DNA of 64,000 bases from Cyanidioschyzon merolae (lineage: Eukaryota): assembly GCA_000091205.1 (NCBI GenBank), contig AP006499.2; one strand, written 5' to 3'. The notes beneath the pieces are model-generated. The model was given only the letters and a program-made list of their open reading frames with translations, made no database searches and was not told the DNA's origin. How positions within the stretch are numbered: position 1 is the first letter of the stretch; each line of letters opens with the position of its first letter. This document shows positions 1 through 58,094 of the stretch, piece by piece. Made by a program: the position numbers and the translations under genes.

Positions 1-789
1 CGCAAACGCAGATCTTCCAGAGACACCGCAACGTCTTCACTTGATGCGCGAATCATGAACACAGCAGCATAAACTCAAGGTTGCAGCCCAACCTAGATGA
101 TATCCCAAAGCAGACTTACAAAGTGTAACCAGTCCTACCACAGGGCCGGCACTTGCCCTCCCGAACACAACCCAGACCGAACAATACGAATTGATTGTAT
201 AGAGCAGGCCGTTGGAGCCGACTACGAGGTTTGGCTTCGCCAATCGCGCGCGCCAGCTCAACGCGCATTCGGTTACCGCAAGTGCATCGCAGAAATCAGA
301 CAAAGGCGACGTCGCACGGAGCACACTTCAAATGAAACGGCGTCGTGATTGGAGCAGTGCCAGGAGCGCCGCGCACACCTCAGATGAAACGCATTCGCAT
401 GCGTGTGTGGCTGCGTGTGTTCGGATCGACGAGCGTCAGGCGCACTGCGATGCGCCTCAGTGCAGCAGCAGCAGCAACGAGATCGGCACAAGATTACGAA
501 GCGATGCGTGCCGGCGCGCGCGTTGTTTCCGAGATCCCAGGCGTCGACGCGTCGATGGTGGTGGTGGTGGCAGGCGGGCGCCTGGATCTCCATGTATGTC
601 AGGGCGGTACTGCGATGGGCAGTAGCGTCGGCACCAGCGACAGAGCCTATAGCAAGAGATTATTCTACGTGAGTTTCCGATCTACGAGACTTTATTTCAG
701 CTGCAGCACGATGCGAACACGCATGTGCCAAGGCGGGGTCTTGGACACGTGTCCTTCATCGATCGGTGAGGCGTCTCGCGCGGTGCACG

Positions 790-3545
790 CATCTCGCGAA
801 GTGAGCGCATCTGGGGGATCAGGCAGTCAATTGGAGCGACGCGCGTGTCGCCGTTGTTGAAGGGAAACGCGATGTTGATCTCTAGTGTGTTGTTCAGCTG
901 TAAAAGTTGTATTTGCGTTGGAGTCGAACAAAAATATAGTTTTCAATTCATTTGTGTTTCAGCCCTCAAACAAGTCTAGTCAAGTGTTCTTTCGCAGTAT
1001 ATAACAGAAGGGTTCACAGAGCGTTCTTTCTCAAGAAACTGAAAAAAGAAAAGTTATGAAAAGCAAGTCCACGATCCTGGAGGCCCAGGGCCGCCGGCTG
1101 CCAGACAAAAAAAACGAAAAACAGTGCCGAGTCCAGAAGAAAAGGAAGAGAAGAAGAACCGAAATGGGGAGGCCCTACGTCGAAGGCTGCAAGAAAGACG
1201 ACAGTACAACGAGATGGTGGTGAAAGCCTTTCTTCTTGGACATATCAAGGATCCGTACAGGGAAAAGTTGCGAGACGCTATCGAAAAACTTGTCGACTCG
1301 TACTCCAAGAGTACTGTCAAGGCGTCGTCAGGACTGATGCATTTGGCGAGGGAGATGTACGAAGACGTGGCGCACATGGAAACGGTCGAGATTCCGGACG
1401 AGTTTTTCGACAAGACGTTTATTCGTCACCTGATGCTTGGTACAGCGGAAACGCGGAGGGAAAATGAGCGGGTTCACGCTCTTCACGAAAACTTCGCGGA
1501 GCTCCGCTTCGAGAGTAATCGATACAGGGGTGATCGGGATATTTAGACAAACGGAGCGAAAAAGCACATCACCAGTCTGAAGTACCATTTGACAGTGAAC
1601 ATCGAACGTTTCGTGATACGGGCCGTGTTTCCACTCTACTCGAGCCTATCTCGCAATGGAAAATGGGCGATTATCAATGACATCACGAACGATCGTAATC
1701 ATGAAGATGAGGTCGAATTTGTCGACAAGAAGGCGGCAAACCAGAGCACGAATGAAGCTTCTGAAATCCGTGCGGTTATACAAGAGCACCGTGCGGTACT
1801 AGGGTTGGCGAATCCAACAGAAAAGATATCAGAGCTGAAAAAAGATAAGGAAAGATGCTATCGCCTCGTCTTACGGTATTTCGCGTTTTCGTTCCGAGAA
1901 CTCGAACCCAAGACCGAAAAGCGTCTGAGTAGGGGAAAAATGCAGAGTCGGAGAGACGGAAGGTTTTTGCAATGGGGAAGCGCTTCAACGTGGTTCCAAT
2001 GTGCAACATTAAGTCACATTTTGTGAGTATCGACTCCGGCGTCCTTTACGGCATCATGAAAGAGATCTGTCGGAGTTCAGTGTCAGCAGGGAGGAATTCA
2101 CCGGCGAAAACCGGGAGACGTACTGGAGGATTAACTTCAATTTCAAACGTCTGGAAGCGAGCAAACAGCAGGTATTCACTGGAATGATCGAAACCGATGG
2201 AGTAGCCTTGCGTGTACACTATCGGCGGTTGAAGAAAGATCGTCCAGTTCCGCCCTCGGCGAACCATGAAGATGAGAAGGAGGCGGATCCTGTGACGCAG
2301 GAGGTGGAGGATAACGACTTTATGGTTGGCGCGGCGAAGCATAAAGATGGGAAGGAGGCGGGTCCTGCGACGCAGGAGGTGGAGGATAACGACCTTGTCG
2401 TTGACGTAACGAAGGATGAAGATAAGAAGGAGGCGGATCCTGCGATGCAGGAGGTGGAGGATAGCCACATTGTCGTTAGCGCTACGAAGCATGAAGAAAA
2501 GAAGGAGGCGGGTCTTGAGACGCAGAAAGTGCATGATGACGACTTTGTCGTTGGCGCTGACCCCAGAAACACAAATATCATCACCATCGCAGCACCGAAG
2601 CGCGCAGAAGATAGTACTGACGGTAACTTGCGTCAGAAAGACATGCGTCTGCTGAGGTTCTCGAGAGCGAGATACGGCCGAGAATCGGGAATCATGAATG
2701 CAAGGAACAAAATCGAGACTTGGAATACAGGAATGAAGGATCTCCTGGAAGCTATGAGCAAGGTGACGAGCCGAGGAGCGGACTTTCATGCTTTTCGGGA
2801 GTTTATGCAAGTTCGTGTTGCTCATTGGGATGCACTGTGGGAGGAGTATACAAAGCCCCGGTGGGCTCGGTTGCGTATGAATTTGTACAGTGGGAAGCAG
2901 CGGGAGTTCGCGATCTTTTTCAATCACTTGAGTGCCCTCAAAGAGGACAAGACTCAAAGGCTCGTAGTAGCATACGGAGCAGGGCGCTGGGCGCCCAAGA
3001 AAGGTACTACGCCAGCTCCAACGACGAGGATGTACAAGTCGTGTGCACGGCGTTTTCTTACAATACCTGTAGATGAGTTTCGAATGTCCTACACACACCT
3101 CGAGCTGGTTTGTACACTTCAGAGGGTCGAGATGGAAAAGTGCCAGCCGAGCCCTGAGGAAATAGCAAAGTACGGACCGCTGACGGAGGAGCAAATGGAA
3201 AGGAGAGCGAAATTTCGTGGACTACTGGCACTGGTGAGTACAACTCCCAACGGCACGAATCGTATGGAGTTTGTTAACCGAGACTTTAACGCCGCTCTCA
3301 ATATAAGGAAATGTGCGGTGCTGGAGACGAGACCTCCAGAGTGGACAAGAGGGAACTTTTTTGGACAACCTCTTCAAGTTCAGTTATATGAGAAGAAGTT
3401 GGAAGCAGCAGTAGGTGGCCGGTCGAAAGAAACTGGAAGGCGTCTGTACGTCAGTTGGAGACTTCTTGGCTAGGGCACGGTTGCCGCCACTACTGTACAC
3501 CGCTGGCGTCGTTCGACTTTCGAACGGCGTTCGGATGCGGCGGAC
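790..3545 (+). mobile_element. TnpB/Fanzor-like (RuvC-nuclease) transposon, copy 1; pseudogenised
   Basis: About 2.7 kb homologous over its whole length to the reverse complement of 23445-26065 and 53700-56530. The 5' non-coding leader 'gcatctggggg..gtcgccgttg(ttg)aagggaaacgcgat..' is shared. The ORF encodes RuvC-I '[20 protein letters not shown]', '[25 protein letters not shown]' and RuvC-III 'NRDFNAALNIRKC'. A conserved tail 'ccactactgtacaccgctggcgtcgttcg' continues past the stop codon. Boundaries are approximate (+/-30 bp). Confidence 0.7.
1056..3473 (+). pseudogene. Fanzor/TnpB-like nuclease ORF of copy 1, interrupted
   Basis: Pieces 1056.., 1124..1546 (in-frame TAG where copy 3 reads YIYGAMKY), 1589..2026, 1972..2187 and 2184..3473 (429 aa intact C-terminal RuvC-like core). 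Frameshifts and the nonsense codon were found by comparison with the other two copies. Confidence 0.7.
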
Positions 3546-3567
3546 TCTTCGGCAGTTTTCGCTCACC

Positions 3568-5271
3568 ATGACACAGGTAGTCAAGAGAAGTGATGCGGAA
3601 ACCGAGTCCTCGTTGGGCGCATACGAGCGCGAGCGACTCGCGCGGATGGAACGGAATCGTATGCTCATGGAAAAGCTGGGTGTCACCTCACTTTCGAACC
3701 GGCTCGAGACGATCACGACTGTTCGGGAGCAAGCCCTCAAACCCATAGGTTACTCGAAACGCACGCCAAAGGCGGAGAAAAGGGCGCGCAATTCTGAAAA
3801 CGAAGTAGACCGTGGAGAGCTGGAGCCACGGCGTCGTTCGCTTCGTGTGCGGGGAATCGCCCCGGCCGGAGCTGGAACATCAGCAGAGGAACCGAAAAAT
3901 AGCCAGCTACAGCTGAAGGAAGAGGAAACATCAAGAGGTCCGTTTTTGGAAGACCAGACGTTCGCAGAGGTTGCCCTAGAAAACTATGGTGCCACTAGCG
4001 AAAGCTCCATGGTCAACGACGACTACGACCGCAGCGACGTAGACGACGTCGATGGTAACAAAGACGACGGAGACCAGAAGAGCTTGTGTACGCGGCGCGC
4101 CAGGTTGTTCCAGCGAGCCTGGTGCGGTGCAATGGCATGCACTTCCTTGTCGACAAGTGAGCATCTCGCGAAGGATCCAAGCCGTTTTCACCGCTGGGTG
4201 CTGGACGAGGCCTCGGGCTTCTTCAAGCTTGTTCCAGCACGTATTTATTCCGCAACCATGCATCCGCGTCTCGATGCATGGACCATGATGGTTGGCGACA
4301 AGGCAGGTCATGTGGGCCTTGCTGTTGTACCACGGGAACGCGTCGCAGAACATGCTGTTCAGGTGCTGTGTATGCGAGTTCACCGCGACACAACCGCTGG
4401 CATGGCACCACGTGCGGGTTCCGCCAACTCCCAACAGCTGCTAACAGTGTCCTACGACGGCAGTGCGCGCTTGCTAGATATCGAAAAACAAACAATTCAG
4501 ACAGTCCTCGTCGATGAGCGAGAACGAATTTTCAAGAGCATAGCGCTCAGTACAGAGAACGACAACGTCTTTTGGACCACTGCCAGCCATCGCTCACTTG
4601 GTGGATTCCTGGTTCGCCACGACCTTCGACAGAGCCAGAAATCGTTCGATGCTTTCGGTATCTCTGACAGCAGAGTCTACTCTGTTAGTTTACAGCATCA
4701 GGGCGCTGCAGGAGCAGTCCCCGGCCATGACGGTCTGCTGGCGGTCACGACGGCGCGAGATGGTGTTCTCATTTTTGATCAGCGTCGAATCGAGACTGGC
4801 GCTACTCGCCGATCAACATCAAAACCGCTTTTTGCTCTACCACACGAGCGCGCAACAACTGCAGCAACTTGGTCTCCGTCGGCGACGCGGCTGCTGACCA
4901 CCTGCTACGATGACTTGCTACGCATATGGCATTACGACGGCAGCGAGTGCTCGCTCGAACACCGCTTTGTACACAACAATCACACCGGTCGATGGGTTAC
5001 GCCTTTTGAGGCATGCTGGGACCCAGCTACGGACCACAAGATTTTTGCGTGTGGATCCATGAATCATAACCCGGTCCATGGCGTGGACCTCTTCCACGTG
5101 GAGCTCAACAAACGATCAGTCTGGAATCGGTTGACTGGCGAGCCCATGACGGCGATTGCGGCTGTCCTGGCCTGGCACCCGGCAGGGCATGCGCTCATAG
5201 GCGGGACTGCATCAGGCAGGGTATATCTATGGGGCGAAGCTCACGGATCTGAGGGCGTCCTCGCAGCGTGA
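3568..5271 (+). CDS. WD40-repeat protein (possibly WDR76/Cmr1-like)
   Basis: The ORF 3415..5271 begins inside the transposon tail, so the likely start is the ATG at 3568 (MTQVVKR). The C-terminal half has WD-like segments (LLAVTTARDGVLIFD, TCYDDLLRIWHYDGS) and the N-terminal part is acidic low-complexity. Confidence 0.45.
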   Translation: MTQVVKRSDAETESSLGAYERERLARMERNRMLMEKLGVTSLSNRLETITTVREQALKPIGYSKRTPKAEKRARNSENEVDRGELEPRRRSLRVRGIAPAGAGTSAEEPKNSQLQLKEEETSRGPFLEDQTFAEVALENYGATSESSMVNDDYDRSDVDDVDGNKDDGDQKSLCTRRARLFQRAWCGAMACTSLSTSEHLAKDPSRFHRWVLDEASGFFKLVPARIYSATMHPRLDAWTMMVGDKAGHVGLAVVPRERVAEHAVQVLCMRVHRDTTAGMAPRAGSANSQQLLTVSYDGSARLLDIEKQTIQTVLVDERERIFKSIALSTENDNVFWTTASHRSLGGFLVRHDLRQSQKSFDAFGISDSRVYSVSLQHQGAAGAVPGHDGLLAVTTARDGVLIFDQRRIETGATRRSTSKPLFALPHERATTAATWSPSATRLLTTCYDDLLRIWHYDGSECSLEHRFVHNNHTGRWVTPFEACWDPATDHKIFACGSMNHNPVHGVDLFHVELNKRSVWNRLTGEPMTAIAAVLAWHPAGHALIGGTASGRVYLWGEAHGSEGVLAA

Positions 5272-17379: not shown

Positions 17380-18720
17380 GGCGGCATCTGGGGTCTGTTG
17401 CCAGCGAACAGAGGCCGTGAGCATGCAATCGTTTCTCTGTACCCGTGTCAGATTAAAATGGAACGCTGGACTGATACAGCTGTTCGTGCACTCCGAGCTC
17501 CTTGCTCCGAAATGCTTCTAAGTGTGCAGTGTCGAGATTCGAAAAGCAACACTTTGGGTTTACGGATCGATCCGCAGCGTTAGGATTCTCGGTCGTCTTT
17601 TCGGATTCTTTTGTTCGACGCTTTGCAGCTGGAATTCGTTACGTCACCGGAATCAAGATGATTCGGGGCGCCTCAAACAAGAGTCCATGAAATAAGCGAT
17701 GTAATTATCCCGTTCACGGGGGGCAAGCCTCTGGGCTGCTCCTTCGGTTACGTGTAGCAGCGCAAATCACGCAGCCTTCAGGTTTTCGATTTTTCGAATT
17801 CATGGCAACTCGTGAGCGGAGCAATGCGAGCCGCTGGGTTCATAGCGACAGCCAGTCGACGTCGGGCGCTGAAGAACTTTTGAAGTCCATGTCGCGACGT
17901 TGCTGTACTTGCTATGTCACATAATCGATTGTGTGCGAAAGCGAAAACCCCTCTCTTTGTGGCCATCGGCGAAACGCCATTCGACATCAGCATCATGCCT
18001 CTCACGCGATATGCTCGCCGAGGTTCGCATCCCAACTATCTAAATGGAAATGCGTCTTGGACTCAGACTTGAGTTATCACGGCGACGGCTTGCAGTGGAG
18101 CGTGTGTCATCGTTTTGCATAACAGGAGCGTAGACGGATCGACATTTCTCGACGTGCTCTCCAGCCTGGGTCTTCCTTCTGGTGCCTTTTTCATCATCAC
18201 GTACACCATCGCGTTCCACAAATCGTCTACCGTATGGAACAGCATGCGCTCGCGTGTTCAAAAAACAGCGAACTCGCTGGGGAGATCGTACAGGAGAGGT
18301 CCGTGATCACAGGGTACGACACAAGGTGCGGAAACCGAGGTGAGCATCGAGAGGCGCCTCTCGTATTTGTCCAGACCACGGACCAGGCGATGATGGAAGC
18401 CTGCACGTCTCACATGGTGCCGGTCGGTGGAGGCGATTTGATGGACGTATAGGAACGAATGACCAGAAGTAAGTGTACCTGCGGTGAGAGGTGCAGCGAG
18501 GCTGTGGACAGAGAACATGAACATGGCAAGCGAATGGTAGATCACAACCTCCGCTTTGCATAAACTGCGTTGACAACATCCGGAAGCAGAAAATGTTCGA
18601 CTCGAACGCTGCCATCAATATTAGACGAGCCGTGAAGACGAGATCCGAAGAGCAGCGTCTGCCGAACATTGTGAGGCAGCCTCGCAGGCTCGAAGTGTGT
18701 CTGGATAAAGCCTGAAGCCG
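17380..18720 (+). repeat. dispersed ~1.3 kb repeat family, copy A
   Basis: Collinear ~70-75% identity to 51490-52790 and 59720-61000. Shared segments include 'aaaatggaacgctg', 'gggtttacgg', 'ggagcgtagacg.atcg..tttctcgac' and 'gaacatggcaagcgaa'. Confidence 0.8.
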
Positions 18721-21966: not shown

Positions 21967-23439
21967 TTATGACTTGCCATCCGATGCGGAGGCATGCTGC
22001 TGCTGCTGCTGCTGCTGCAGTTGTTGTTGTTGTTGTTGTTGGTTGAGCGCAAACCATTCCGGCCGCCAGCGTGCCGGGATCGCACGATGTGTGAACTGGC
22101 GCGAACCGGCTGCAAACTCTGCCACAGTATGCCCCGCACCGTAGAGACGATATTTGTAGGTGACCAGACCCTCGAGACCAACTGGACCTCGCGCGTGAAT
22201 GCGGTTTGTGCTGATACCCACTTCACTACCGAAACCGTACCGAAAACCGTCGGCGAAACGCGTCGAGGCGTTGTGGTATACGCCAGCGGCATCGACAGCG
22301 GCGAGAAAACACTCCGCTGTGTTCACATCCTCGGTAATGATACAATCGGTATGATGTGAGCCGTGCTCATTGATATGCGAAATCGCCTCGTCCATCGATT
22401 CCACAATCTTGACCGCCAGAATGTAGTCCAGAAACTCGGTATCCCAGTCCTCGGCGGTTGCTCTGCGCAGGAGCTTCTGCTTGGTATCCTGGTTCCGCGT
22501 TGAAACCAGAACCTTTTGGAGATGCGCAAAAGCGTCCTCATCGGCCCGAATTTCCACATTTTGCTTCCAAAGTGCCTGTGCAACCTGCTCCAGAACCCCG
22601 CGTTCCATTGCCAACCGGTGACAGATCAGCGTCTCGAGCGCGTTGCACGCTGCCGGGTACTGCGTCTTCGAGTCGACGACGATGCGCACCGCCTTGTCGG
22701 GGTCGGCATCCTTGTCGATGTAGCAGGCACAGAGGCCGTCCGCGTGACCAAGTACAGGCACCGTTGTATTTGCTTTGATGTACCGAACGAGCGATTGGCT
22801 GCCCCGCGGAACCACAAGGTCCAGGTACTGGTCCAGTTTCAGGAGCTCAGCGATCTCCGCTCGGGTCGTGACCAGCTGCAAAGCGTTCGCGTACCGGGCA
22901 CCGAGCGTGCGTTCAACGCCTAGGCGCATGGCCGCTGTAAGTGCCTGGTTCGTGGCGGTGGCCTCACGCCCGCCTTTCAGCACCACCGCATTCGCAGACT
23001 TGAGACCCAGCGTGCCGATCTGCACGAGCGCGTCCGGGCGCGACTCAAATATCACGCAAATCACGCCAATTGGGCACGTGACTCGGTACAGTTCGAGGCC
23101 GTCCGCTGCAAGCTCTGTCGCCAACGTGACGCGTCCGACAGGGTCCGGAAGCGTGCGCAGCTGGTCGATTCCCGCCAGCAGCGTATCAAACTTTCCAGAC
23201 CCAGAAAGATCGAGGCGTTTCAGTAATACTTTATCGAGTTTGCCTTGTTCGCAAAGTGCCTCAGCCTGACGCAAATCGCTTTGGTTCGCGGCGAGGATCT
23301 CGGCCCGTTGCTCTGCGAGCGCCTCACGAACAGCAAGCAGCGTTCTATCCTTCTGCTGGCTGGAAAGCGTCTGACAAACAAGTGCTGCCTGACGCGCTTG
23401 TTGCGCAACTTGCAAGATACTCTCTGTTTCAGTCGTCAT
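21967..23439 (-). CDS. gamma-glutamyl phosphate reductase (glutamate-5-semialdehyde dehydrogenase, ProA-type)
   Basis: 490 aa aldehyde-dehydrogenase-fold protein with a ProA-like N-terminus (AALVCQTLSSQQKDRTLLAVREALAEQRAEILAANQSDL). The C-terminus is poly-Q, encoded by (CTG/TTG)n at 21996-22042. Confidence 0.88.
   Translation of the reverse strand: MTTETESILQVAQQARQAALVCQTLSSQQKDRTLLAVREALAEQRAEILAANQSDLRQAEALCEQGKLDKVLLKRLDLSGSGKFDTLLAGIDQLRTLPDPVGRVTLATELAADGLELYRVTCPIGVICVIFESRPDALVQIGTLGLKSANAVVLKGGREATATNQALTAAMRLGVERTLGARYANALQLVTTRAEIAELLKLDQYLDLVVPRGSQSLVRYIKANTTVPVLGHADGLCACYIDKDADPDKAVRIVVDSKTQYPAACNALETLICHRLAMERGVLEQVAQALWKQNVEIRADEDAFAHLQKVLVSTRNQDTKQKLLRRATAEDWDTEFLDYILAVKIVESMDEAISHINEHGSHHTDCIITEDVNTAECFLAAVDAAGVYHNASTRFADGFRYGFGSEVGISTNRIHARGPVGLEGLVTYKYRLYGAGHTVAEFAAGSRQFTHRAIPARWRPEWFALNQQQQQQQLQQQQQQQHASASDGKS
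21996..22042. repeat. (CTG)n(TTG)n microsatellite, encoding poly-Gln on the minus strand
   Basis: ctgctgctgctgctgctgcagttgttgttgttgttgttgg; it lies within the proA C-terminus. Confidence 0.9.
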
Positions 23440-23444
23440 TTGTA

Positions 23445-26065
23445 AAGCACGGGTCTGCGTCTTACTTAGCGATGAGCCGCCACGAACGATAAACGTCTTT
23501 CAAAAGAAAAACGCTGTCGCCAGTCGTGTACAGTAGTGGCGACCGGCGCCTTAGACAAACCGTCTCCAACTCAGTGTAGACGCCTCCCCGTCTTTTGGAC
23601 CGGCCACCTACTCCTGCTTCCATTTTTTTCTCATATAGTTCCACTTTGGGAGGTTGTCCAAAAAAATTGTCTCTTGGCAAGTCGTCTCCAGCACCGTACA
23701 TCTCCGTATACTGATAGCGGCATTAAAGTCACGATTCACAAACTCCATACGTTTCTTGCCATCACTGGTTGTGCTAACCAATGCAAGTAGTCCCCGAACT
23801 TTCGCCCTGCTTTCCATTTGCTCTTCCGTCAGCGGTCCATACTTTTTTATATCCTCAGGGCTCCTCTGGCACTTTTCCATATCGACCCTCTGAAGTGTAC
23901 ACCCCAGTTCATGGTGTGTATACGATGTTCAAATTTCATCTACAGGTATCGTAACGAAACGCCTTGCGCACTCCTTGATCGTTCCTGTCGTTGGAGCTGG
24001 CGTAGTCCCTTTTTTCGACGCCCAGCGCCCTGCTCCGTATGCTACAACCAGCCTCTGACTTTCATTCTCCTTGAGGGCACTCAACTCATTGAAAAAATTC
24101 GGAAATCCCCGCTGCTTCTCACAGTATAGATTCATCCGCAGACGAGCCGACCGGAGCTTTGTATACTCTTCCCAAAGTGCATCCCAATGCGCAACATGAA
24201 CTTCCAGGAACTCCCAGAACGCTTCAAAGTCCGCTCCACGGCTCGTCATCTCGCTCAGAGCTTCCAGGTGATCCTTCATTCCATGTCTCGACTTTCTTCC
24301 TCGCATTCATTATACCGGATTCTCGATGGTATCTTGCTCTCGAGAACCTCAAAAGACGCATGTCTTTCTGACGAAAGTTGCCCTCAGTACCATCTTCCGC
24401 ACGCTTCGGTGCTGCGATGGTGATGATATTTGTGTTTCCGGGGTCCGCGCCAACAACAAAGTCGTTCTCCTGCACTTTCTGTGTGGCAGGATCCGCGTCC
24501 TTCTTTTCTTCATGCTCAGCCGCGCCAACGACAAGATCGTTATCCTCCACCTCCTGCATCACAGGATCCTCCTCTTTGTTTTCTTCATCCATCGTTACGG
24601 GCGCAGCCGAGGGCGGAACTGGCCAATCTTTCTTCGACGGCCGATAGTGTACACACAAGGCTACTCCATCAGTTTCGATCATCCCAGTGAATACCTTTTG
24701 TTTGCTCACTTTGAGACTTTTGAAATCGAAGACGTTCTTCCGGTACGTCTCCCGGTTTTCGCCGGTGAATTCCCCCCCTGCTGACACTGAACCCCAGACT
24801 GATCTCCTTCATGATGCCGTAAAGGATTCTGGAATCGATGCTCACAAAATGTGACTTGATGTTGCACACTGGAACGGCACTGAAGCGCTTCCCCATTAGG
24901 AAAGTCTTCCGGTCTAACGACTCTTCATTTTTTCCTCACTCAGATCCATCTCCGCCTTGCGTTCGAGTTCTCGGTCCAAAAATACGAAATCGCGCAGAAT
25001 TAAGGGACCACATCTTTTTCTATGTCTTCTCATATCTGATACCTCTGCTGCTGGATTCGCCAGCCCCAAGACTGCACGTTGCTCTTGTATAGCCTCACGG
25101 ATTGCAGAAGCTTAATTCTTTCTCTTGCGTAATCTCTTCTTGTCAACGAACTCGATCTCATCTTGATACTTTCGATCGTTCGTGATGCCATTGATAATCG
25201 CCCATTTTCCATCGCGAGATAGGCCCGAGTAGAGTGCAAACATGGCGCCTATCATGAAACGTTCGAGGTTTACTGTCAAATGGTTCTTCAGATTCGTGAG
25301 GTACTTCATCGCCCCATAGTCGTAAATATCCCGGTCACCCCTGTATCGAGTACCCTCGAAGCGGAATTCCGCGAAGTTTTCGTGGAGGGCATCCACTAGC
25401 ACATTTTCCTTCAGCGCTTGCGCTGTACCAAGCATCAGTTGACGAGTCAAGGTCTTGTCGAAGAATTCTTCCGGAATCTCGACCGTTTCCATGTGCATCA
25501 CGTCGCCGTACATCTCCCTCGCCAAATGCATCAGCCCTGACGACGCCTTGACAATACTCTTCGAGTCTGAGTTGACACGTTTTTGATAGCATCTCGCAAG
25601 TTTTCCTTCGACGGATCCTTGATATATTTAAGAAGACCGGCGTTCACCACCATCTCGTCGTACTGTCGTCTTTCTTGCCGCCTTCGACGTAGCACCTCGC
25701 CCTTTTGCTTCTTCGCCTTTTCCTGTTCCTCTATATTCGGAACTGGTTCCGTTTTTCTCCGGCAGCTGTCCACGCTACTCCTCCAGGATATTTTACTTCC
25801 TTTTCCATAACTTTCCTTTTTTCAGTATTTTTCGGAAAGAACGCTCTTCGAACGCTTCTGTTATAAACCGCGAAAAATCACTTGAATTATCTAAACCGAA
25901 GTTTGAGACACGATTGAACAGAAAACTATAGTTTGCTATGACTTGAACGCAAATGCAACTTGTACGGCAGAGCAAGATCATAAACATCAGGACCACGTTT
26001 CCCTCCAACGGCAACATGCGCGTAGTATCTCATGCCTGCATGATCTCCCAGGTACGCGTATCGAA
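23445..26065 (-). mobile_element. TnpB/Fanzor-like transposon, copy 2; pseudogenised
   Basis: ORF fragments 25812<-25531, 25531<-25112, 24896<-24669, 24787<-24224 ([17 protein letters not shown]), 24306<-23929, 23880<-23608 (NRDFNAAISIRRC) and 23701<-23462 are homologous in order to copy 1. The stop codon is lost, so the frame reads into the conserved tail. The tail ends ~30 bp from the proA ATG. Confidence 0.7.
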
Positions 26066-27031
26066 CACACTATGTGGAACAAAGAACAGAGACGAACGAT
26101 TCACGAGCTTCGATATATATATATATTTCGTTCCCCCCTCTACGATGAACGTTACAAGGGGGAAAGATTTCGGTATTTTAGAAAGTTTACCTCCTAGGCG
26201 GAAGGTCCATAGAGCCGTACGAGTCTGCTAGGCTGGTGCTCGGTGTGCCTCTAAAGTGGCTGGTGCTTTAGCGAGACCTGAGCAACTCGTCTGCAACGCA
26301 GTTTATACTAGGTCTCGGATAGGGTATGCTGCGTTTGGGCGTCGCCCAGGTCCTAGTGGGCTCCTTGTATATCGCTTCGCGCTACCACAGGCAGAACGTC
26401 TCTCTGTACAGCTTGCAGGCTCCCAGAATGATAATTAACCGTGATTCCGTGTCAGGTGTAGGATTCTGCGAGCCGACGCCCTCAGTGGTATGGCAAAGTC
26501 GTTCTGTCTCCGTGCAGCGTCTGCCCCAGTGGTATACGCGCTACGGCGGGTGCAGCAAGGCAGGCACTCGGCACACGACAGAACATACGAAACGGCCAGT
26601 ATACCCGAGAGGAAGTATAAGTAGTGGAACTTGAATGTAGGTGCTTCATCACTGACGCTTTCCCGCAAGCCATGACCCATCCCGAATTCTGGGATGCATG
26701 GTCAATGTAATCGTTTTGTCATCTGGAAAAACAGCAACATGAACATCGACGACATGCGTCATGAGAAACGTGCCAAGGAATGCTAGTCATATACAAAGCG
26801 GTCATGCGAATCCAGAAATCATGGACATGGGCATCGCAATGCCGGTCCATGATCGACAGCCATGCGAACATGCATGACATGTCCATTGCAATGCGACAAT
26901 CTATGACATGCGGCGATGAAAGAGCGTGCAGCGAACGCGCGCGCCGATCGACATGGCGCGCCGCGATCGAGACGCGCGCGTCGTTCGCGCGGCGGTGACC
27001 TGTTTTCGGTAACGCACAAACGACGACGAGT

Positions 27032-27757
27032 TTGGCTTTCGTACATCTACACATGGCACGAGTTCTCGGGTCGGTGGCTGCCCAACCGAAATGGGTGCCA
27101 CTGGAATCGAACCCAGACTTATGGAATGAATATATGTATCACCTAGGTGTTGAAGGAGGACGTCCAGCGTTCGTGGACGTCCTGTCGCTGACGGAGGCAG
27201 TGGCGCAGCTTCCGCAACCTGTGCACGCGCTGGTGGTGTGTTTCCCACTGGGCGCACGGGAAGCCAGCTCCCCGGTTAGAACTGTAGGGTCTGACGTGTG
27301 CTATTATTTTTGCGCACAAACAGTACAAAACGCGTGTGGAACTATGGCGCTGCTGCACGCTGTCTTGAACAACTGTGAACGCGCGTCCATCCAGCTTCGG
27401 CCGAGCTCCGTACTGGAAAAGTTGCAGGCGCACGCTCGTGACTTTCCAAACGCAACGCCTTTAGAACGAGCAGAGTTTCTAGAAGGTGACGAGGCCCTGG
27501 CTGCAGCGCACGATGCATATGCTGCCGCGGGACAGACAACGGCACCTGCACCAGACACCGACACCGATTTGCACTTCATTTGCCTAATTCGGGACCGCAG
27601 CGGCCGTCGTCTTCTCGAGCTCGATGGCAGGAAACACGGTCCAGTAGACCATGGGGAAACGAACGCCGAAACTTTTGTAGAGGATGCGTGTAGGCTAATC
27701 CAGAACAAATTTGTGCAGCGGGGTCCGTACCTAACTGTCATGGCGCTGTGCGGCTGA
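27032..27757 (+). CDS. ubiquitin C-terminal hydrolase, UCH-L3/L1 family (peptidase C12)
   Basis: 'KWVPLESNPDLWNEY', 'QTVQNACGTMALLHAV' (catalytic Cys) and 'DLHFICLI...LLELDGRKHGPVDHGET' (catalytic His) align with UCHL3. The likely start is the second ATG at 27053. Confidence 0.85.
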   Translation: MAFVHLHMARVLGSVAAQPKWVPLESNPDLWNEYMYHLGVEGGRPAFVDVLSLTEAVAQLPQPVHALVVCFPLGAREASSPVRTVGSDVCYYFCAQTVQNACGTMALLHAVLNNCERASIQLRPSSVLEKLQAHARDFPNATPLERAEFLEGDEALAAAHDAYAAAGQTTAPAPDTDTDLHFICLIRDRSGRRLLELDGRKHGPVDHGETNAETFVEDACRLIQNKFVQRGPYLTVMALCG

Positions 27758-32002: not shown

Positions 32003-32599
32003 TATAAACAAAAAGCCGGTGCGCTTCACCTGATAACTCTGCTCTACGATAACCGTAGCCCGCGAGCGAACAGCACCAACAACGCACAGGCTGCGAGCTG
32101 CACCGATCCCGTTTCGAGCACGTTTAAACCGGCGTGCGGAACGCCCACGTGGCCGTGACCCCCCGTATACCGCACGCGGCTGTGCCTGCACACGCAGCGG
32201 CCGTCGTACGATCGAGCGCAGCCCTTGCGGGCACGCAGGGACGTTGCGCGGGGCGCTTGCCGCCACGGCCTGGGCATCCGCGGGAACACGAGCCGGATCG
32301 CCTGCCGATGCATGCGCCAGGTACGCAAAAGGAGCTTTGTTCTGTTTTCCCCTATTTGTTTGCATAGGACGCATGATTTGTATGCACATGGCAGCGCCGC
32401 TTGGAGCAGCGATACAACGTCTTCGGCGAGCGTCGTCGCGCTGCACAGCAGACAGGGCGCATTCGCGACTAGACGAAGCGCACAGGTGGTATGCGGCTCG
32501 AGGTTCGCGTCTCGTGGCAACGTGTGGGCAGCATCCGGGAGCGAGATACGTCGCCACTGCGATGTTTGCGTTGGTTGCGCGGGCGCTCCGAACTCTTTC

Positions 32600-33155
32600 T
32601 GAATGGACTAGCACTGAAGAACCACGCGTCTGGAGTCGCATCCTCGAACTTGATGGTCATGACTCACCAGTTCATTGCGAGTATCCGTCGAGGACACTAA
32701 AATGTCGGGGATTGGATGCATATCGAGAAACCACGCGTCTGGAGTCGCATCCTCGGACTTGATGGGTATGACTCACCAGTTCATTGCGAGTATCCGTCGA
32801 GGACACTAAAATGTCGGGGATTGGATGCATATCGAGAAACCACGCGTCTGGAGTCGCATCCTCGGACTTGATGGGTATGACTCACCAGTTCATTGCGAGT
32901 ATCCGTCGAGGACACTAAAATGTCGGGGATTGGATGCATATCGAGAAACCACGCGTCTGGAGTCGCATCCTCGAACTTGATGGGTATGACTCACCAGTTC
33001 ATTGCGAGTATCCGTCGAGGACACTAAAATGTCGGGGATTGGATGCATATCGAGAAATCATGCGTCTGGAGTCGCATCCTCGAACTTGGTGGGTATGACT
33101 CACCACTTCATTGCGAGTATCCGTCGAGGACACTAAAATGTCTAGAGGTTGACTC
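32600..33155. repeat. tandem satellite, ~109-bp unit x ~5
   Basis: 'ccacgcgtctggagtcgcatcctcg(a/g)acttgatgg' recurs at 32622, 32731, 32840 and 32949, with a degenerate copy near 33057. The unit contains 'ccgtcgaggacactaaaatgtcggggattggatgcatatcgagaaac'. Confidence 0.9.
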
Positions 33156-34219
33156 CGCGTCTGGATGAGTCACCGGCGGAGCCGCTCATCCCTGGTGGTA
33201 TTTCCTGCGCAAACACTTTCCAGGAAATCATCTGGGAACGTGATTCAGGTCGGTGTCACGCAACATTTTTCAGATGTCTTTTCGCAGGATAGACAGAGTT
33301 GCGGCTCGCTGTTGCCACGACTATCGATAGGGATGGTGCTGAACACCTGGTAAACATCTCCTCGAAACAGGAGTGTTGTTCCGAAGCCACAAGAATGCGC
33401 CGCCGCCGAGCGCCAAAACTCGAACAGCGCACCTCTCCTCGTGATCCAATACAGGCTCAAATTTTGGGGAAAGATGCAGTATGCACGAGAAAACGGCATA
33501 CGCATGCTTGGACTAGATGTTTAAACGGGAAAGCGCGAGGGCCTGCCACACGCGACGTTTTTGAGCGCCACACCGCACGCTCTAATGGCAACACCCCGAA
33601 TATGGCAAAGCAACATGCGCGAAACTATGGCGCTGGACCCGACAGCTACAATGGCGAACAGCTGACTCAGACCTTTGCACTGTACGTTCCGACCTGTGCA
33701 TCGCCGCAGCTACGCAAAAGCTTCCGCTTCTGTTCCGAAACTGTGATCACAGGTCTTGCAGTGCTGCCGATCGCGAAACGCATAGCAGGCTGCGAGTCGA
33801 GGGGCAAGGTACCAGAGGCTGCCCTTCCCGGGCAGCACCAGGCCTCACACACACGGACGAGGGTGAGGTTTCCGTATCGGGCGCGTACAAGAGGCAAGCG
33901 CTTCGCCTGGGCCGTACAGCGTAGAGCCTACGGAGCCACTTGTGTCCCGGTTCTGTGGCGAGTCAGAAGCAGTCGTTTTGGCTGTGAACCCGCGCTGCTG
34001 GGCACTGCGAAGCGTCGAGTGACGCGCACTTCGAACGCCGCGGGTACTCTCCAGGGTGCAGGCGGGCGCTTGTTTTCAATACCTACCGACCGTTCGGAAC
34101 AGGAGCGTAGACACGACGACCAAGTGATCGCTCCCAGTCGGCCAGACGGCTACCAAAGTTTGGCTGCGAACGGCACCTGCTCACAGTACTAGCAGCGCAG
34201 GGGTAGCGACACCCGTGTC

Positions 34220-40558: not shown

Positions 40559-41689
40559 TCATGCGCGGTAGTGTTTCTCTGGGAGGCTGCGAAGGCGTTC
40601 CGCAGCCTGCTCGGCAGTGAGATCACGCTGCGATTCGGCGAGCATTTCGAAACCGACCATGAACTTGCGAACGGTTGCACTCCTGAGCAATGGTGGATAG
40701 AAATGGATGTGAAAGAGTAGACCTGGTTCGGCGGTCGCGGCACCGTTCGCCACGGGCGCCTGGTGCAGCCCCATGCTGTACGGAAAACTGGTCTTGAAGA
40801 GATTGTCGTACCGAACTGTGACTCGCTGCAAAATGTCTGCCAGATCATCCTTCTGCGATGCATCTATGTCCAAGAGAGACTGGCACGAGCCAGTGGGAAG
40901 CACCATGACCTCGAACGGCCATACCGCCCAGAAAGGAACGAGTGCAACAAAATGCGGATTCTGGCAAACAATGCGCTCGTTAGGCCGCTGCAACTCTGCT
41001 TTCAAATAGTCCAAGAGTAGTTCTCGGCCCGTGTCAGCGTAATAGGCACTCTGCAGGCGCAGCTCGGTGGCAATCTCGTTCGGGATGAACGAGGATGCCC
41101 ATATCTGGCCGTGCGGGTGCGGGTTGCTGCAGCCCATCGCAGAGCCCTTGTTCTCGAAGATCTGCACGTGCCGGATCTGCGGCATGGTCGCTAGCTCAGC
41201 GTACTGCTCTTGCCAGGCATCGACAACGCGCCGAATCTCCGAACGACTCATCTCCGCCAGCGTCAAGTCGTGCCGAGGCGAAAAGCACACGACGCGACAG
41301 GTACCGGACACGGGCCGCGCTTGGAACAGCGTGGCGTGCGACGCCCGACTGGCCTCAGCGTCGGCACTGTCAGAGGGCCCATCTAACAGAAGCGCAGGAA
41401 AGTCGTTCGTAAACACAAACGTAGCGTCATACTGGGGGTTTCGGTGCGCGCCACCAGCCCGCGTGTTACCAGGGCAGAGGTAGCACTCGGGATCGTAGCG
41501 GGGTCGTTCTTCGCCACCAACCGTCTCCTGGGCGCCTTGCCAAGGCCGTTTCGCTCTGTGCGGGGAGCACAAGACCCACTCCCCTTTCAGAGGATTAAAC
41601 CTACGATGCGGGTGCTCGGTAAAGTCAAACGACGCCATAAAGACGGGAGTAGTGCAATGAAGCAAGCACCAAGCGCAACGACTTGCCAC
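40559..41689 (-). CDS. galactose-1-phosphate uridylyltransferase (GALT, HIT family)
   Basis: '[23 protein letters not shown]', 'CYLCPGN', '[13 protein letters not shown]' and '[11 protein letters not shown]' (HxHxQ). The alternative start is the second ATG at 41638. Confidence 0.88.
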
Positions 41690-41765
41690 CGCCTCAACAC
41701 ATCAGGGGCGCTCGCCGTCGCATGAATCGTCAGACGCCGTGGACATGCGCGAGCCGTACGATGGA

Positions 41766-42543
41766 CGCCTCGCTCGCCCGGAATGCCGATCAGCATCGCG
41801 CAGTCGAGAATCCCTGCTCCATCGCAACGCTCCGTTGATCCGGCGTTCAGGAGCGCCTCGCTCGCCCGGAATGCCGATCAGCATCGCGCAGTCGAGGATC
41901 CCTGCTCCATCGCAACGCTCCGTTGATCCGGCGTTCAGGAGCGCCTCGCTCGCCCGGAATGCCGATCAGCATCGCGCAGTCGAGAATCCCTGCTCCATCG
42001 CAACGCTCCGTTGATCCGGCGTTCAGGAGCGCCTCGCTCGCCCGGAATGCCGATCAGCATCGCGCAGTCGAGAATCCCTGCTCCATCGCAACGCTCCGTT
42101 GATCCGGCGTTCAGGAGCGCCTCGCTCGCCCGGAATGCCGATCAGCATCGCGCAGTCGAGGATCCCTGCTCCATCGCAACGCTCCGTTGATCCGGCGTTC
42201 AGGAGCGCCTCGCTCGCCCGGAATGCCGATCAGCATCGCGCAGTCGAGAATCCCTGCTCCATCGCAACGCTCCGTTGATCCGGCGTTCAGGAGCGCCTCG
42301 CTCGCCCGGAATGCCGATCAGCATCGCGCAGTCGAGGATCCCTGCTCCATCGCAACGCTCCGTTGATCCGGCGTTCAGGAGCGCCTCGCTCGCCCGGAAT
42401 GCCGATCAGCATCGCGCAATCGAGAATCCCTGCTCCATCGCAACGCTCCGTTGATCCGGCGTTCAGGAGCGCCTCGCTCGCCCGGAATGCCGATCAGCAT
42501 CGCGCAGTCGAGGATCCCTGCTCCATCGCAACGCTCCGTTGAT
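41766..42543. repeat. tandem minisatellite, 88-bp unit x ~9, immediately upstream of GALT
   Basis: Unit 'cgcctcgctcgcccggaatgccgatcagcatcgcgcagtcgag(a/g)atccctgctccatcgcaacgctccgttgatccggcgttcaggag'. Copies differ mainly at gagaatcc versus gaggatcc. Confidence 0.92.
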
Positions 42544-42739
42544 CGAGGAAGTACGCCAAGCATCAAGCGGCCGTCACGTGTGCGTGCTGCTCCCGGTCGC
42601 ACGCGCGCTCCTGCCGCCGACCCAGGCGATCTCGCGTCGGGCGCGCACCGCATTATGTCTGTACCATGCTTTGTTTGCTATTTAGGGTATCTTCTCATCG
42701 AAGAAGCGCCCTGGGACCTAACATCCAACTACACCAAGC

Positions 42740-53707: not shown

Positions 53708-56530
53708 CGAAACGAGCCCAAAACGTGCGATGAACGACGCCGACCGTGTACAGCAGTGGCGAACCGTACGCCCTGGACAGACCGTGTCCAACTGACGTGT
53801 AGACGCCTCCCCGTCTTTTCGGACCGGGCATCCACCACTGCTTCCAACTTCTTCTCATATAATTCCACTTTTAGAGGTTGTCCAATAAAGTTCTCTCTTG
53901 TCCAATCTGGAGGTCTTTCCTCCAGCACCGCACATTTCCTTATATGGATAGCGGCATTGAAGTCTCGGTTCACATACTCCATCCGTTTTTTGTTGCCATT
54001 GATTGTACGAACAAGCGCAAGGAGTCCACGAACGTTCGCCCTTCTTTCCATTTGCTCCCCCGTCATCGGTCCGTGCTTTGCTATTTCCTCAGGGCTCCGT
54101 TGGCACTTTTCTATCTCCACTCTCTGAAGTGTACACCCCAGTTCCTGGTGTGTATACGATGTTCGAAACTCATCTACAGGTATCGTAACAAAACGCCTTG
54201 CGCACGCCTTGTACACCCTCGTCGTTGGAGCTGGCGTAGTTCCTTTTTGGGTCATCCATCGTCCTGCCCCGTACGCTACAACCAGCCTTTGACTTTCATC
54301 CTCCTTCAGGACGCTCAACTCATTGAAAAATTCGCGAACGCCCGCTGGTTCCCACAATACAAATTCATTCGGAAACGAGCCCACCGGGGCTTGGTATACT
54401 CCTCCCACAGCGCATCCCAATGGGCAACACGAACTTCCATGAATTTCCGAAAAGCTTCAAAGTCCGCTCCACGGCTCGTCATCTCGCTCAGAGCTTCCAG
54501 GTGATCCTTCATTCCATGTCTCGACTTTCTTCCTCGCATTCATTATACCGGATTCTCGATGGTATCTTGCTCTCGAGAACCTCAAAAGACGCATGTCTTT
54601 CTGACGAAAGTTGCCCTCAGTACCATCTTCCGCACGCTTCGGTGCTGTGATGGTGATGATATTTGTGTTTCCGGGGTCCGCGCCAACAACAAAGTCGTTA
54701 TCCTGCACTTTCTGTGTCACAGGACCTGCCTTCTTGGTTTCTTCATGCTTCTCCGCGTAAACGACATGCACGTTATCCTCCACCTCCTGCGTCGCAGGAT
54801 CCACCTCCTTCTTTTCTTCATCCTTCGCCGCGTAAACGACAAGGTCGTTATCCTCCACCTCCTGCATCGCAGGACCAGCCTCCTCCCTTTCTTCATGCTT
54901 CGTCGTGTCAACGACAAGGTCGTTATCTTGCACCCTCTGCGTCGCAGGATCCGCCTCCTTCTCATCTCCATCCTTCGCCACGTCAACGACATGCACGTTA
55001 TCCTCCACCTCCTGCGTCGCAGGACCAGCCTCCTCCTTTTCTTCATCCTTCGTCACGGGCGCAGCTGAGGGAGGGACTGGCCGATCTGCCTTCAACCGCC
55101 GATAGTGTACACACAAGGCTACTCCATCGGTTTCGATCATTCCAGTGAATATCTTTTGTTTGCCGACTTTGAGCCGTTTGAAATCGAAGATATTCTTCCA
55201 GTACGTCTCCCGGTTTTCGCCGGTGAACTCTGTCCTCCTTACATCGAACTCCGGACTGATCTCCTTCATGATGCCGTAAAGGATTCTGGAATCGATGCTC
55301 ACAAAATGTGACTTGATGTTGCACATTGGAACCACGTTGAAGCGCTTCCCCATTAGGACAGCCTCCCGTCTCTCACACGCTTCATTTTTTTCCTCACTCA
55401 GCTTCGTTTCTGCCTTGCGTTCGAGCTCTCAGTCCAGAAACACGAAATATCGCAGGACGAGGCGATAGTATCTTTTCTTATCTTTTTTCATCTCTGATAT
55501 CTTGTCTGTTGGATTCACGAGCCCCAAGACTGCACGGTGCTCTTGTATAGCCGCACGGATTCCAGAAGCTTCATTCGTGAACTAGTTTGACGCTTTCTTG
55601 TCAACGATTTCGACCTCATCTTCACGCTTGCCATCTTTCGTGATGCCATTGATCATCGCCCATGTTCCTTTGCGAGATAGGCCCGGGTAGAGTGCAAACA
55701 CGGCGCGTATCATGAAACGTTCGAGGTTCACTGTCAAATGGTTCTTCAGGTTCGTGATGTACTTCATCGCCCCGTATATGTAAAAATTCGAGTCGCCCTT
55801 GTATCGAGTACCCTCGAAGCGGATTTTGGCGAAGTTTTCGTGGAGGTGCACTAGCACATTTTCCCTCCGCGTTTTCTCTCCACCAAGCATCAGGTGTCGA
55901 ATAAACGTCTTGTCGAAAAACTCGTCCGGAATCTCGACCGTTTCCATATCCGTCACGTCGCGATACATCTCCCTTGCCAAATGCATCAGTCCTGACGACG
56001 CCTTGACAACAATCTTGGAGTACGAGTCGACACGTTTTTTGATAGCGTCTCGCAACTTTTCCCTGTAGGGATCCTTGATATGTCCAAGACGAAAGGTTTT
56101 CACCACCTTCTCGTCGTACAGTCGTCTCTCGTGACGCCTTCGACGTAGGGCCTCCCCCTTTCGGTTCTTCTTCTCTCCCTGTTCTTCTGGACTCGGCACT
56201 GTTTTTTGTTTTTTTCTAGCAGCCGGCGACCATGGCCCTCCAGGATCGTGGACTTGCTTTTTCATAACTTTCCTTTTATTAGTTTTTTTTTGAAAAAGAA
56301 CCCTCTTTGAACCCTTGTGTTATATACTGCGAAAAAACACTTGACTAGACTTGTTTGAGGTTTGAAGCAAAAACGAACTGAAAGACTGTACTTTGCCACG
56401 TCTTTAACGCAAGTACAGCTTGCACATTAGAGCAGCACGCTATTGATCAGGATCGCGTTTCCCTTCAACGGCGACAAGTGCGTCGCATCAGTTGACTGCC
56501 CGATCTCCCAGATGCGCTCAGTGAGCGCGC
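53700..56530 (-). mobile_element. TnpB/Fanzor-like transposon, copy 3; pseudogenised
   Basis: Collinear with copy 1. Pieces are 56265<-55582 (227 aa basic N-terminus 'RKKQKT..KKNRKGEALRRRRHERR'), 55353<-54457 (298 aa with ~6 acidic repeat units and [17 protein letters not shown]), 54539<-54315 and 54420<-53704 (VDEFRTSYTHQELGC..NRDFNAAIHIRKC). Confidence 0.72.
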
Positions 56531-58094
56531 TGGGCGCATCGCCCCGTTAAAAACGCGCAAAGCACAGTGCCTCGACACAAGTCTACCCGTCGCGCACCGA
56601 GGCTAGGCGCAAGGCCGCTGGCGACGCCTTGGCTGGCCTGGTGTCGCTGCGCTCCGGAGACATCGACTCAGGTACCGAGTGTGGTGCCTGCGCAGACGCC
56701 GAGCGCCCCGTTACGAATAGAGAACGCACCGGTGAGCGTTCAAAGACCCCAGCAGACCGACAAGCATCCGCAAGTAGTCGACCGGCAGGTGTAAATACCC
56801 CAACGATCCAGCGCGTTGTTGTGGCAGCAGCAGTATCAGCGTCTCGTTCGGCTAACGTTGGTTGTAGAGACGCCAGCGGCACATACGGTTCAACACGAAT
56901 CACGCCCGTGCTTCCATACAGGTCGAACAGACCAAAGGAAGTTGTGCTAGTGTGCAGGACGTTACTAGGTCGAGTGCAGCGTCCCGCCCCGAGTTCGGTG
57001 GCGGCTCCAGCCACTCGGCCGGGAAAATACTGGCCAGCGAAAGCACTGCCTAAGCCACGAGCGCGACTGATGACCCAACGACCAAAACGCGCCTTTCTAA
57101 TAAAACGAGTTTGATCAGGCGCAACAAGTCCCGTCGAAGCCGCGTCACCAGCTGTTGGAGACTCGTGTCGCCAATGGCGTCGCGGTCCAGGCACGCTGGT
57201 AGTCGCTGCACTGGCACTGGTGTCGGTACCGGCAGTCGCTGCACTTCAGGGTCGCCCAACGCAGCCGCTTCCTCTTCATCCAGCGTCGTAACCAAGGTCC
57301 CGAAGCAGTCTACCTGCCCAAAGCTATGTTTCGCAAAGTAACTGGCAACCACCGGCTCAAGTCGACTCGCTAGAAGCGCATACAGCGGCCAACGACTCAA
57401 CAGTAGCACAGACTTTTGGACGAGACCTCGGGCTGTTGCAACAGCCTCCTCCTCAGCGCTAGCGATGCGACTGCAGTCCATCTGATGCTATCGGTAACAA
57501 GCTACACCGTACAACGTGTCGACAGTGACGCCCTGCCGAACCGTGAGGTACACCGTGTCGTGCTCGCGTCCATGCGCACCGTCGGGAAGCGCTCGCACGG
57601 CCACCTCGCGAAGCCAGTCGTTGTCAAGGTTCTGCGCTGAAGCTCCGGAGCGATCTTCTGTCTGGTTCACTTGCCAGTTCACCGACAACTCATCCGCTAA
57701 CTCAGCACACTCGACTTGGTACTCGTGCTTGGCGTGAAACCTGAACGCAAACCCGCGTTCACCGAACGGATCCGCAAAGCGCACGGCCGGTCGATCGTCG
57801 AGACGCCGCCCTCCTGCCCCATGCGATCTAGGCAGCGGGTATCGCTCTGTGCACAGAAGCGCGTTAAAACGGGTAGGCGTCGACTTCAGTGCAGCGGTGC
57901 AGCGAGGTATCCGTCTGAGTTGACTGAAAGCAGTTCGTGTCATGGAGACACGGTCGGCGGTCAGCGGGAAGGAAACCACGCAGATAACACCGAGCGGCAG
58001 GGGTGCAACACGCGCACCTGAGGGCCGTCACGCGTCCGTGGGCGCTGCAGCTGCTCGTGACGCGACCCTCGTGTTCCCCGAGGCACCGAAACGC

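Follow-up and report, generated by a model that had tools for sequence, protein, structure and literature searches.

In Cyanidioschyzon merolae, a red alga, copies of the Fanzor1 transposon CMe-1A lie with a strong bias, although not as a rule, directly upstream of host start codons and in the same orientation as the gene that follows, and the transposon tail probably now starts the transcripts of neighbouring host genes. The stretch of DNA analysed, here called the window, comprises 64,000 nucleotides (nt) of contig AP006499.2 (NCBI GenBank assembly GCA_000091205.1) and belongs to chromosome 17 of C. merolae 10D (CMQ genes in the reference naming). The genome of this alga is ultracompact and nearly intron-less. 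Repeat finding in the window revealed a single element in three diverged copies, about 80-90% identical and about 2.8-3.3 kb long, with copy 1 on the plus strand and copies 2 and 3 on the minus strand. Fanzors, which are RNA-guided nucleases, are the eukaryotic relatives of TnpB and Cas12.

Placement of CMe-1A copies relative to host genes

The right end (RE) of the element was defined as the point at which homology among 49 non-orthologous copies stops in an all-against-all comparison. These copies represent the 49 unique right flanks obtained from 80 related loci in a metagenome scan, and include the three copies of the window. Copy 1 (590..3543, plus strand; delimited from repeat pairs and the homology boundaries among the 49 copies) has its RE at about 3543 and is followed on the same strand, at a distance of 25 nt, by the ATG at 3568 of a WDR76-like WD40 gene (3568..5271, plus strand), behind a host spacer of 24 nt (3544..3567, plus strand). 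Copy 2 (23481..26722, minus strand) has its RE at about 23481, 42 nt before the co-oriented ATG at 23439, the annotated start of proA, which encodes glutamate-5-semialdehyde dehydrogenase (21967..23439, minus strand; an exact match to the reference protein BAM81960.1). The last detectable homology of copy 3 (53732..56552, minus strand) is at about 53732, 25 nt before the co-oriented ATG at 53707 of a gene for a COPI-associated protein (PF08507; 52913..53707, minus strand). An initial annotation of the window had put all three copies 20-50 bp upstream of a co-oriented start codon, and the distances of 25, 42 and at most 25 nt (the last counted from the last detectable homology of copy 3) bear this out. 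Two of the copy ends that it gave were also close to ours (about 3545 and 53730, against 3543 and 53732), whereas the end of copy 2 had to be shifted from about 23460 to about 23481.

The placement was then counted in 47 usable unique insertions from metagenome relatives, a positive case being a co-oriented open reading frame (ORF) of at least 100 amino acids (aa) that starts within 150 nt of the RE. The null model assumed random intergenic insertion in random orientation and was based on 78 element-free intergenic intervals of the same genomes, in which ORFs of 150 aa or more stood for genes. Under this model the probability of a co-oriented ATG is 0.025 within 50 nt and 0.072 within 150 nt, and the three out of three found in the window would have P of about 1.5e-5 to 4e-4. 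Co-oriented starts were found within 150 nt in 25/47 insertions (53%; 3.4 expected, P = 8e-17) and within 50 nt in 14/47 (30%; 1.2 expected, P = 5e-12). Orientation was likewise biased, with 34 co-oriented against 9 convergent copies (79% co-oriented, P = 1.7e-4). Set against random expectation, the metagenome insertions therefore show both the enrichment and the orientation bias near gene starts that the initial annotation had suspected from its three copies; its claim of one and the same configuration holds in the window and as a family-wide enrichment, but not as a rule, since about 20% of the copies are convergent.

The neighbouring start codons are real, as established from the reference annotation and from orthologs. 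In six neighbouring ORFs the length equals exactly that of the annotated 10D protein, namely RPL37A (92 aa), E2 (170 aa), PCCB (604 aa), an MLO2-like protein (330 aa), a steroid-binding protein (162 aa) and CMS174C (337 aa), and eIF5B is a further neighbour of a copy. At the COPI-associated gene of the window, the M-K-N-C-I start is invariant in four orthologs. The WDR76-like gene is annotated in the reference (BAM81952.1, 578 aa) from an ATG at 3535, which is located within the transposon tail; the N-termini of the Cyanidiococcus and Cyanidium orthologs fit the ATG at 3568 (567 aa) and, judging from these sequences, the annotation is probably wrong in its first 11 residues.

Spacers between the element and the start codon may be extremely short. 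They measure 25 nt at RPL37A, 5 nt at the gene of the E2 enzyme and 1 nt at that of propionyl-CoA carboxylase beta, and in seven cases the ATG is no more than 10 nt from the element end, these being copy 3, with a nominal spacer of -6 nt, and six metagenome sites (1-9 nt). On the side of the left end (LE) the spacer to the next gene is about 70-700 nt and that gene is usually divergent; divergent gene pairs flank 11/20 element-bearing intervals against 15/81 in the comparison set (P = 0.003). The host upstream regions are GC-rich and without TATA boxes, so that they offer no host promoter motif with which the tail could be compared.

The orthologous loci of proA and of the WDR76-like, COPI-associated, RPL37A and E2 genes in Cyanidiococcus yangmingshanensis, of the sister genus, served as an outgroup. 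No trace of the element was detected by blastn or tblastn at any of these five sites, so that the copies must have inserted in the Cyanidioschyzon lineage. Cyanidiococcus shares with C. merolae the gene order around the three window sites and the start positions at the proA, WDR76-like and COPI sites. The intergenic regions there are 973 nt (proA), 1365 nt (WDR76) and about 600-800 nt (COPI) long, against 3.1-4.2 kb in C. merolae, a length 3-5 times greater over the regions compared (L109, L120 and L121 against window positions 23440-27032, ~1-3567 and 53708-57942). The element makes up the whole length difference at the proA and WDR76 sites, while the COPI site keeps about 1.4 kb of other DNA as well. 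Exact insertion points are not readable because intergenic sequences of the two genera cannot be aligned. The empty sites that the initial annotation had thought worth comparing in related strains thus exist in Cyanidiococcus; among orthologous metagenome loci with 98-99% identity there was none, every one of them carrying the element. One apparent empty site (L099, positions 1-394, contig Ga0506602_000271), in which the proA locus gives way to unrelated, AT-richer DNA 18 nt past the beginning of the tail motif, was rejected as most likely an assembly chimera, and P0124, a member of the proA cluster, was rejected as an unrelated protein. According to a published statement the larger genome of C. 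merolae is attributable to intergenic regions longer than those of its relatives, and the lengths at the three syntenic sites fit this statement.

Identity and ends of the element

The three window repeats are old, decayed copies of CMe-1A. Bao & Jurka 2013 (Mob DNA 4:12; PMC3627910) reported this element from C. merolae in about 150 copies of about 3 kb with about 80% identity to the consensus, without terminal inverted repeats, with a target-site duplication that could not be determined and with 5' 635 bp in common with TE-N2_CMe. Organism, length, copy divergence and variable 5' module all agree with this published description, which rather than the Repbase consensus was the basis of the match, and the two also share a single Fanzor1 ORF and the presence of many old and few near-intact copies.

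The 5' end of copy 1 is fuzzy, homology to the other copies starting at about 590-612, and its boundaries in the 49-copy comparison are at -2874 (LE) and +57 (RE) relative to the tail motif described below. Compared with an intact relative, copy 1 has at least two in-frame stops and two frameshifts; its longest remaining ORF (2184..3473, plus strand, 429 aa), identified from the ORF list and the family profile, represents the C-terminal RuvC part of the Fanzor1 protein and carries NRDFNAALNI and a second RuvC motif. Copy 2, with the LE motif ATGACAAAACGATTACATTGAC at 26722-26701, has at least six stops and one frameshift by the same comparison. Copy 3, delimited by repeat pairs and homology boundaries, contains in-frame stops, frameshifts having been noted only in copies 1 and 2. 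All three window copies are accordingly broken relics of Fanzor1 members, with no intact nuclease gene among them. An ORF of at least 700 aa is kept in 2/32 full-length copies examined; over 90% of those examined are pseudogenes, and a near-intact copy with an ORF of 722 aa is found at locus L006.

The ORF at 2184-3473 has 191 metagenome relatives, and a whole-library search with a hidden Markov model returned 1,829 relatives. A profile built from 79 diverse full-length relatives (A6) matched the solved Fanzor1 structures of Parasitella (9cf0, E = 1.8e-22), Spizellomyces (8gkh, 2.4e-15) and Guillardia (9cer, 2.4e-10) in PDB, and the aligned regions span the RuvC D, E and D motifs. All 79 relatives have D398 (DPG) and E569 (DEFRT), and at least 90% of them have D636 (NRDxNAAxNI). 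Less was obtained by other means. Pfam scans (local copy) of the element ORFs and ten relatives gave nothing useful, one relative having a weak PF07282 Cas12f1-like TNB match (E = 0.002); a shallow profile of 13 sequences produced only noise against PDB; and an AlphaFold model of the relative P0113, made from 10 sequences, was unusable (predicted local distance difference test score 38.6). Precomputed Pfam assignments label part of the relatives of 2184-3473 as PF26935 (DUF8286), a domain of unknown function that, given the profile match to solved Fanzor1 structures, belongs to Fanzor1 proteins. A relative 37% identical to the C-terminal part of the Fanzor occurs at positions 1236-2000 of a 33.5-kb IMG/VR viral contig (L002; IMGVR_UViG_3300028372_000028) and fits the reported occurrence of Fanzors in large DNA viruses. 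The Fanzor ORF also contains 75-nt in-frame tandem repeats with an acidic repeat unit (window positions 2260-2556, 24446-24599 and 54679-55057), with about 3-4 units in copy 1, two in copy 2, five in copy 3 and more in relatives; the distant intact relative P0113 is without them.

The copies diverge by 8-17% from the consensus in the last 1 kb and by more toward the 5' end. In an alignment of 31 full-length copies, paralog identity climbs from about 0.60 at the 5' end to about 0.88 in the 3' half of the ORF, a gradient that resembles the 'fuzzy 5' ends' of other Fanzor1 families and might be due to 3'-anchored copying or gene conversion.

The 3' end is sharp. In 42/49 copies homology runs out 45-61 nt past the start of the motif GCCACTACTGTACAC, and in the remaining 7/49, copy 3 among them, at +23 to +29; mean pairwise identity drops from 0.65 to the background of 0.34 at +57 from the motif. 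The tail has the layout stop-GGGCG-n-GCCACTACTGTACAC-nnnnGGCG-TCGTTCGACTTTCGAACGGCG-TTGATGGTG, followed by the flank. In copy 1 it follows the stop codon at 3474..3543 (plus strand), with the motif at 3486-3500 and the hairpin CGTTCGA-CTT-TCGAACG at 3510-3526. The tail of copy 2 (23481..23553, minus strand) has the motif at 23540-23526 and then the hairpin CGTTTTTC-TTTT-GAAAGACG, and that of copy 3, with the motif at 53760-53746, is shortened or diverged, its homology ending 28 nt after the motif start. By analogy with characterised Fanzors, the tail is expected to encode the guide RNA (omega RNA) and is presumed to be the end of its scaffold, and the 24-nt host spacer behind copy 1 would be the guide segment.

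The RNA of 23481-23625, which contains the tail of copy 2, gave a folding score of z = -4.4 relative to shuffles, and copy 1 gave z = -1.0. The potential for the hairpin and for a long-range pairing of 12 bp is kept in 79-89% of cells. The pairing involves the post-stop motif GCCACTACTG (3485-3496), which is complementary to the coding segment GCAGTAGTAGGTGGC (3407-3421) about 75 nt upstream, at the same positions in other copies; across 41 copies this helix is possible in 89% of cells, and it shows no covariation because both of its strands are conserved. A partial complement, GTGTACACTATCGGC, lies about 1.26 kb upstream at 2212-2226, within the ORF. RNAalifold found no consensus for 41 tails.

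At the opposite end of the element there are at least three alternative 5' modules, with element lengths of about 2.7, 3.15 and 3.45 kb and homology that keeps extending upstream, and no conserved motif resembling a target-adjacent motif (TAM) is found next to this variable end. Subterminal hairpins are present in the element. It is not of the IS200/IS605 type, as the Fanzor ORF is its only ORF and there is no transposase gene (TnpA). In comparison with Helitrons, it has a 7-bp hairpin about 12-17 nt from the RE and fuzzy 5' ends, and its consensus end is ...GTTGATGGTG, not CTRR.

Some further observations concern gene calls and other repeats. Prokaryote-style gene calls (P0028, P0118 and the window ORF 3415-5271) fuse the Fanzor end or tail to the downstream host gene; these fused calls involve an LEA-like protein, a methyltransferase and a WD40 protein, and result in chimeric 'proteins' in public collections. 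Two tandem arrays in the window are unrelated to the element, one with an 88-nt unit in at least nine copies that are up to 100% identical (41678-42681) and one with five copies of a 109-nt unit (32511-33164). A 61-nt segment occurs three times outside the transposon copies with 61-75% identity (18490-18550, 52558-52618 and 60839-60899), and may be a conserved protein motif of paralogous genes or a chance similarity.

Possible origin of the placement

As the association is non-random and family-wide, targeting, a function of the tail, or both must be at work. The initial annotation, which did not recognise the element as CMe-1A, had named the two as alternatives (targeting of promoter-proximal or 5'UTR sites, or a tail with promoter or 5'UTR function) and is thereby supported in part. 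The reading that we favour, tentatively and at somewhat short of even confidence, combines integration near gene 5' ends with the retention of co-oriented copies whose tail now provides the start site or the 5' untranslated region (UTR). The element would integrate preferentially in open DNA at gene 5' ends, frequently between divergent genes, at distances from a few nt up to about 140 nt upstream of the start codon. Copies that are co-oriented with the downstream gene would then be kept, the 3' end of the element being transcribed outward in the sense direction to give the host transcription start and 5'UTR; such outward transcription would replace the host promoter severed by the insertion. 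In the Fanzors studied so far, the 3' flank of the omega RNA acts as the guide (Saito et al. 2023, PMC10432273) and, because this guide is copied from the flanking DNA, the Fanzor 3' end must be transcribed outward. Neither a host core promoter nor a leader fits into spacers of no more than 10 nt, which would place the 5' end of the mRNA within the element. Rough arithmetic from genome size and gene number indicates that selection alone would need about 20-fold better survival right before an ATG than elsewhere in intergenic DNA; since an advantage of this size is implausibly high, we infer an integration preference.

A more elaborate version, which we hold to be improbable, would unite the host gene and the Fanzor 3' end in a single transcription unit, with addiction-like retention or modulation of host genes. 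A promoter near the end of the Fanzor ORF would give rise to a precursor of the omega RNA scaffold, of a guide identical with the host 5'UTR and of the host mRNA. If this were true, transposon tails would drive the expression of dozens of housekeeping genes, such as RPL37A, eIF5B, E2 and proA, and whatever Fanzor protein survives would carry guides matching essential-gene starts in their empty form. A cut beside an essential gene would then follow once the element was lost and so enforce retention, or the complexes would modulate the genes.

A number of observations weigh against the combination of 5'-end integration and tail function that we favour. About 20% of the copies (9-11) adjoin a convergent gene at its 3' end, the stop codon being 3-170 nt away from the RE, and these are explained neither by 5'-end targeting nor by promoter donation. 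The promoter or 5'UTR role is read from geometry, that is, from the nominal spacers of -6 to 9 nt in seven cases; the contigs obtained when transcripts of proA and RPL37A were looked up were all genomic and broke off at the repeat. Transposons of C. merolae carry repressive H3K27me3 according to Hisanaga 2023, as cited in PMC13353863, and such a mark sits uneasily with an active start site inside the element. The last 60 nt show less conservation among paralogs than any other part of the element (pairwise identity 0.65), which argues against a common sequence-specific promoter at the very end. In seven orthologous pairs, divergence is 1.0% over the last 57 nt, compared with 3.8% over the element body and 0.95% over host coding sequence; this lends the tail weak support, but its low value could be an assembly artefact, with paralogs mixed in the body and the end anchored by its unique flank. 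The structure of the tail RNA shows no covariation beyond shuffles in pair counts over three hairpins and the 12-bp helix, and a search of the window and the tail against Rfam gave no match. Finally, no target motif, target-site duplication or 5' end could be defined in the copies compared, and for this reason there is no direct sign of site-specific integration.

The main rival, possible but in our view doubtful, is that insertion into intergenic DNA is random, that only copies driving the downstream gene are tolerated, and that deletion pressure erodes the spacer to the gene. Such erosion would suit an RE that adjoins coding sequence both ways, at co-oriented starts and at several convergent stops (3-100 nt), with LE spacers of about 70-700 nt, and the truncated tail of seven copies. 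It would also suit the residual host DNA of at most about 350 nt at proA and about 175 nt at WDR76, against 973 and 1365 nt in the empty Cyanidiococcus regions; at the COPI site, however, the residue of about 1.4 kb is longer than the empty ortholog. The non-element DNA of divergent regions has a median of 239 nt with the element against 736 nt without it (P = 0.07), but copy age, taken as the 8-17% divergence from the consensus, is uncorrelated with spacer length (rho = 0.04, P = 0.81), and reports give C. merolae longer, not shorter, intergenic regions than its relatives. The roughly 20-fold survival would be needed directly before the ATG, normally the most harmful intergenic position.

It is also unlikely, by our estimate, that position and orientation were both fixed at integration just upstream of start codons by RNA-guided or strand-specific targeting. 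One conceivable agent would be a Fanzor-omega RNA complex, and in about half of the copies the guide position 3' of the RE does fall on the 5'UTR or start-codon region of the host; the known activity of Fanzor and TnpB is, however, homing to the original site and not the choice of new ones, and the host DNA after the RE has no conserved motif. The other would be a transposase for single-stranded DNA that has the non-template strand of open promoter complexes as its substrate. A strand-specific mechanism would account at once for the position and for the 79% co-orientation, and subterminal hairpins without inverted repeats are found in IS200/IS605-like single-strand transposons also, but the element has neither a transposase gene nor a TAM-like motif at its variable 5' end. 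Targeting of either kind has to contend with spacers that are spread over 0-140 nt rather than fixed, and with the 20% of copies that are convergent.

Chance or artefact is very improbable and was rejected on the position enrichment, the null model and the lengths of the neighbouring ORFs: a compact genome with short element-free intergenic intervals (median about 525 nt) puts any insertion near a gene, and one annotated start (ATG 3535) does lie inside a tail and is probably wrong by 11 codons, but the null expectation of 2.5% (50 nt) and 7.2% (150 nt) compares with 30% and 53% observed, the starts were checked against the reference annotation and orthologs, and the RE was defined from 49 independent copies.

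Significance and comparison with other systems

The placement links the obligatory outward transcription of Fanzor elements to the expression of host genes, and points to an integration preference that is undescribed for these elements. Many of the 'promoters' of C. merolae, a popular model alga in which gene targeting is efficient, may be transposon tails. The copies account for part of the larger intergenic regions of this species compared with its relatives, and they flag at least one reference start codon within transposon sequence.

While the element itself is known, its placement appears to be undescribed: no prior report of a co-oriented, start-codon-adjacent position was found in the literature searched, and the published description of CMe-1A (PMC3627910) says nothing on the placement of copies relative to host genes. 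The present analysis adds to that description a sharp 3' end, a tail motif with a hairpin, start-codon adjacency and co-orientation.

The characterised Fanzor1 systems (SpuFz1, GtFz1 and Parasitella Fz1; Saito et al. 2023) are homologous to the element by profile and have the RuvC D/E/D residues in common with it. The foldable tail of the element, which overlaps and follows the stop codon, is also where the omega RNA lies in these systems. They differ in that all three window copies are pseudogenes, and the omega RNA, TAM and cleavage activity of CMe-1A are putative. We know of no report that places characterised Fanzors at host gene starts.

Among other transposons, the P element, Mutator and Mutator-like elements (MULEs), mPing, Tf1, the Helitrons of bats and maize, and bacterial insertion sequences with outward promoters either integrate at gene 5' ends or donate promoters. 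CMe-1A resembles these in its enrichment just upstream of genes and in the probable supply of a start or 5'UTR. It differs in the extreme distances (0-50 nt to the ATG) and the strong orientation bias, in that the outward transcription of a Fanzor has an intrinsic reason, the production of guide RNA, and in its ultracompact, nearly intron-less host, where the neighbours are core housekeeping genes.

A last comparison is with TldR, the TnpB-derived transcriptional regulators of bacteria, in which the guide of the scaffold RNA matches a host promoter or 5' region. Common to both would be a scaffold RNA of the TnpB family and a guide that matches the 5' region of a host gene, each of them predicted in our case. 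The local proteins of CMe-1A, however, are simply broken and show no sign of an intact nuclease-dead protein, and the guide here would match the adjacent site merely because the element sits there.

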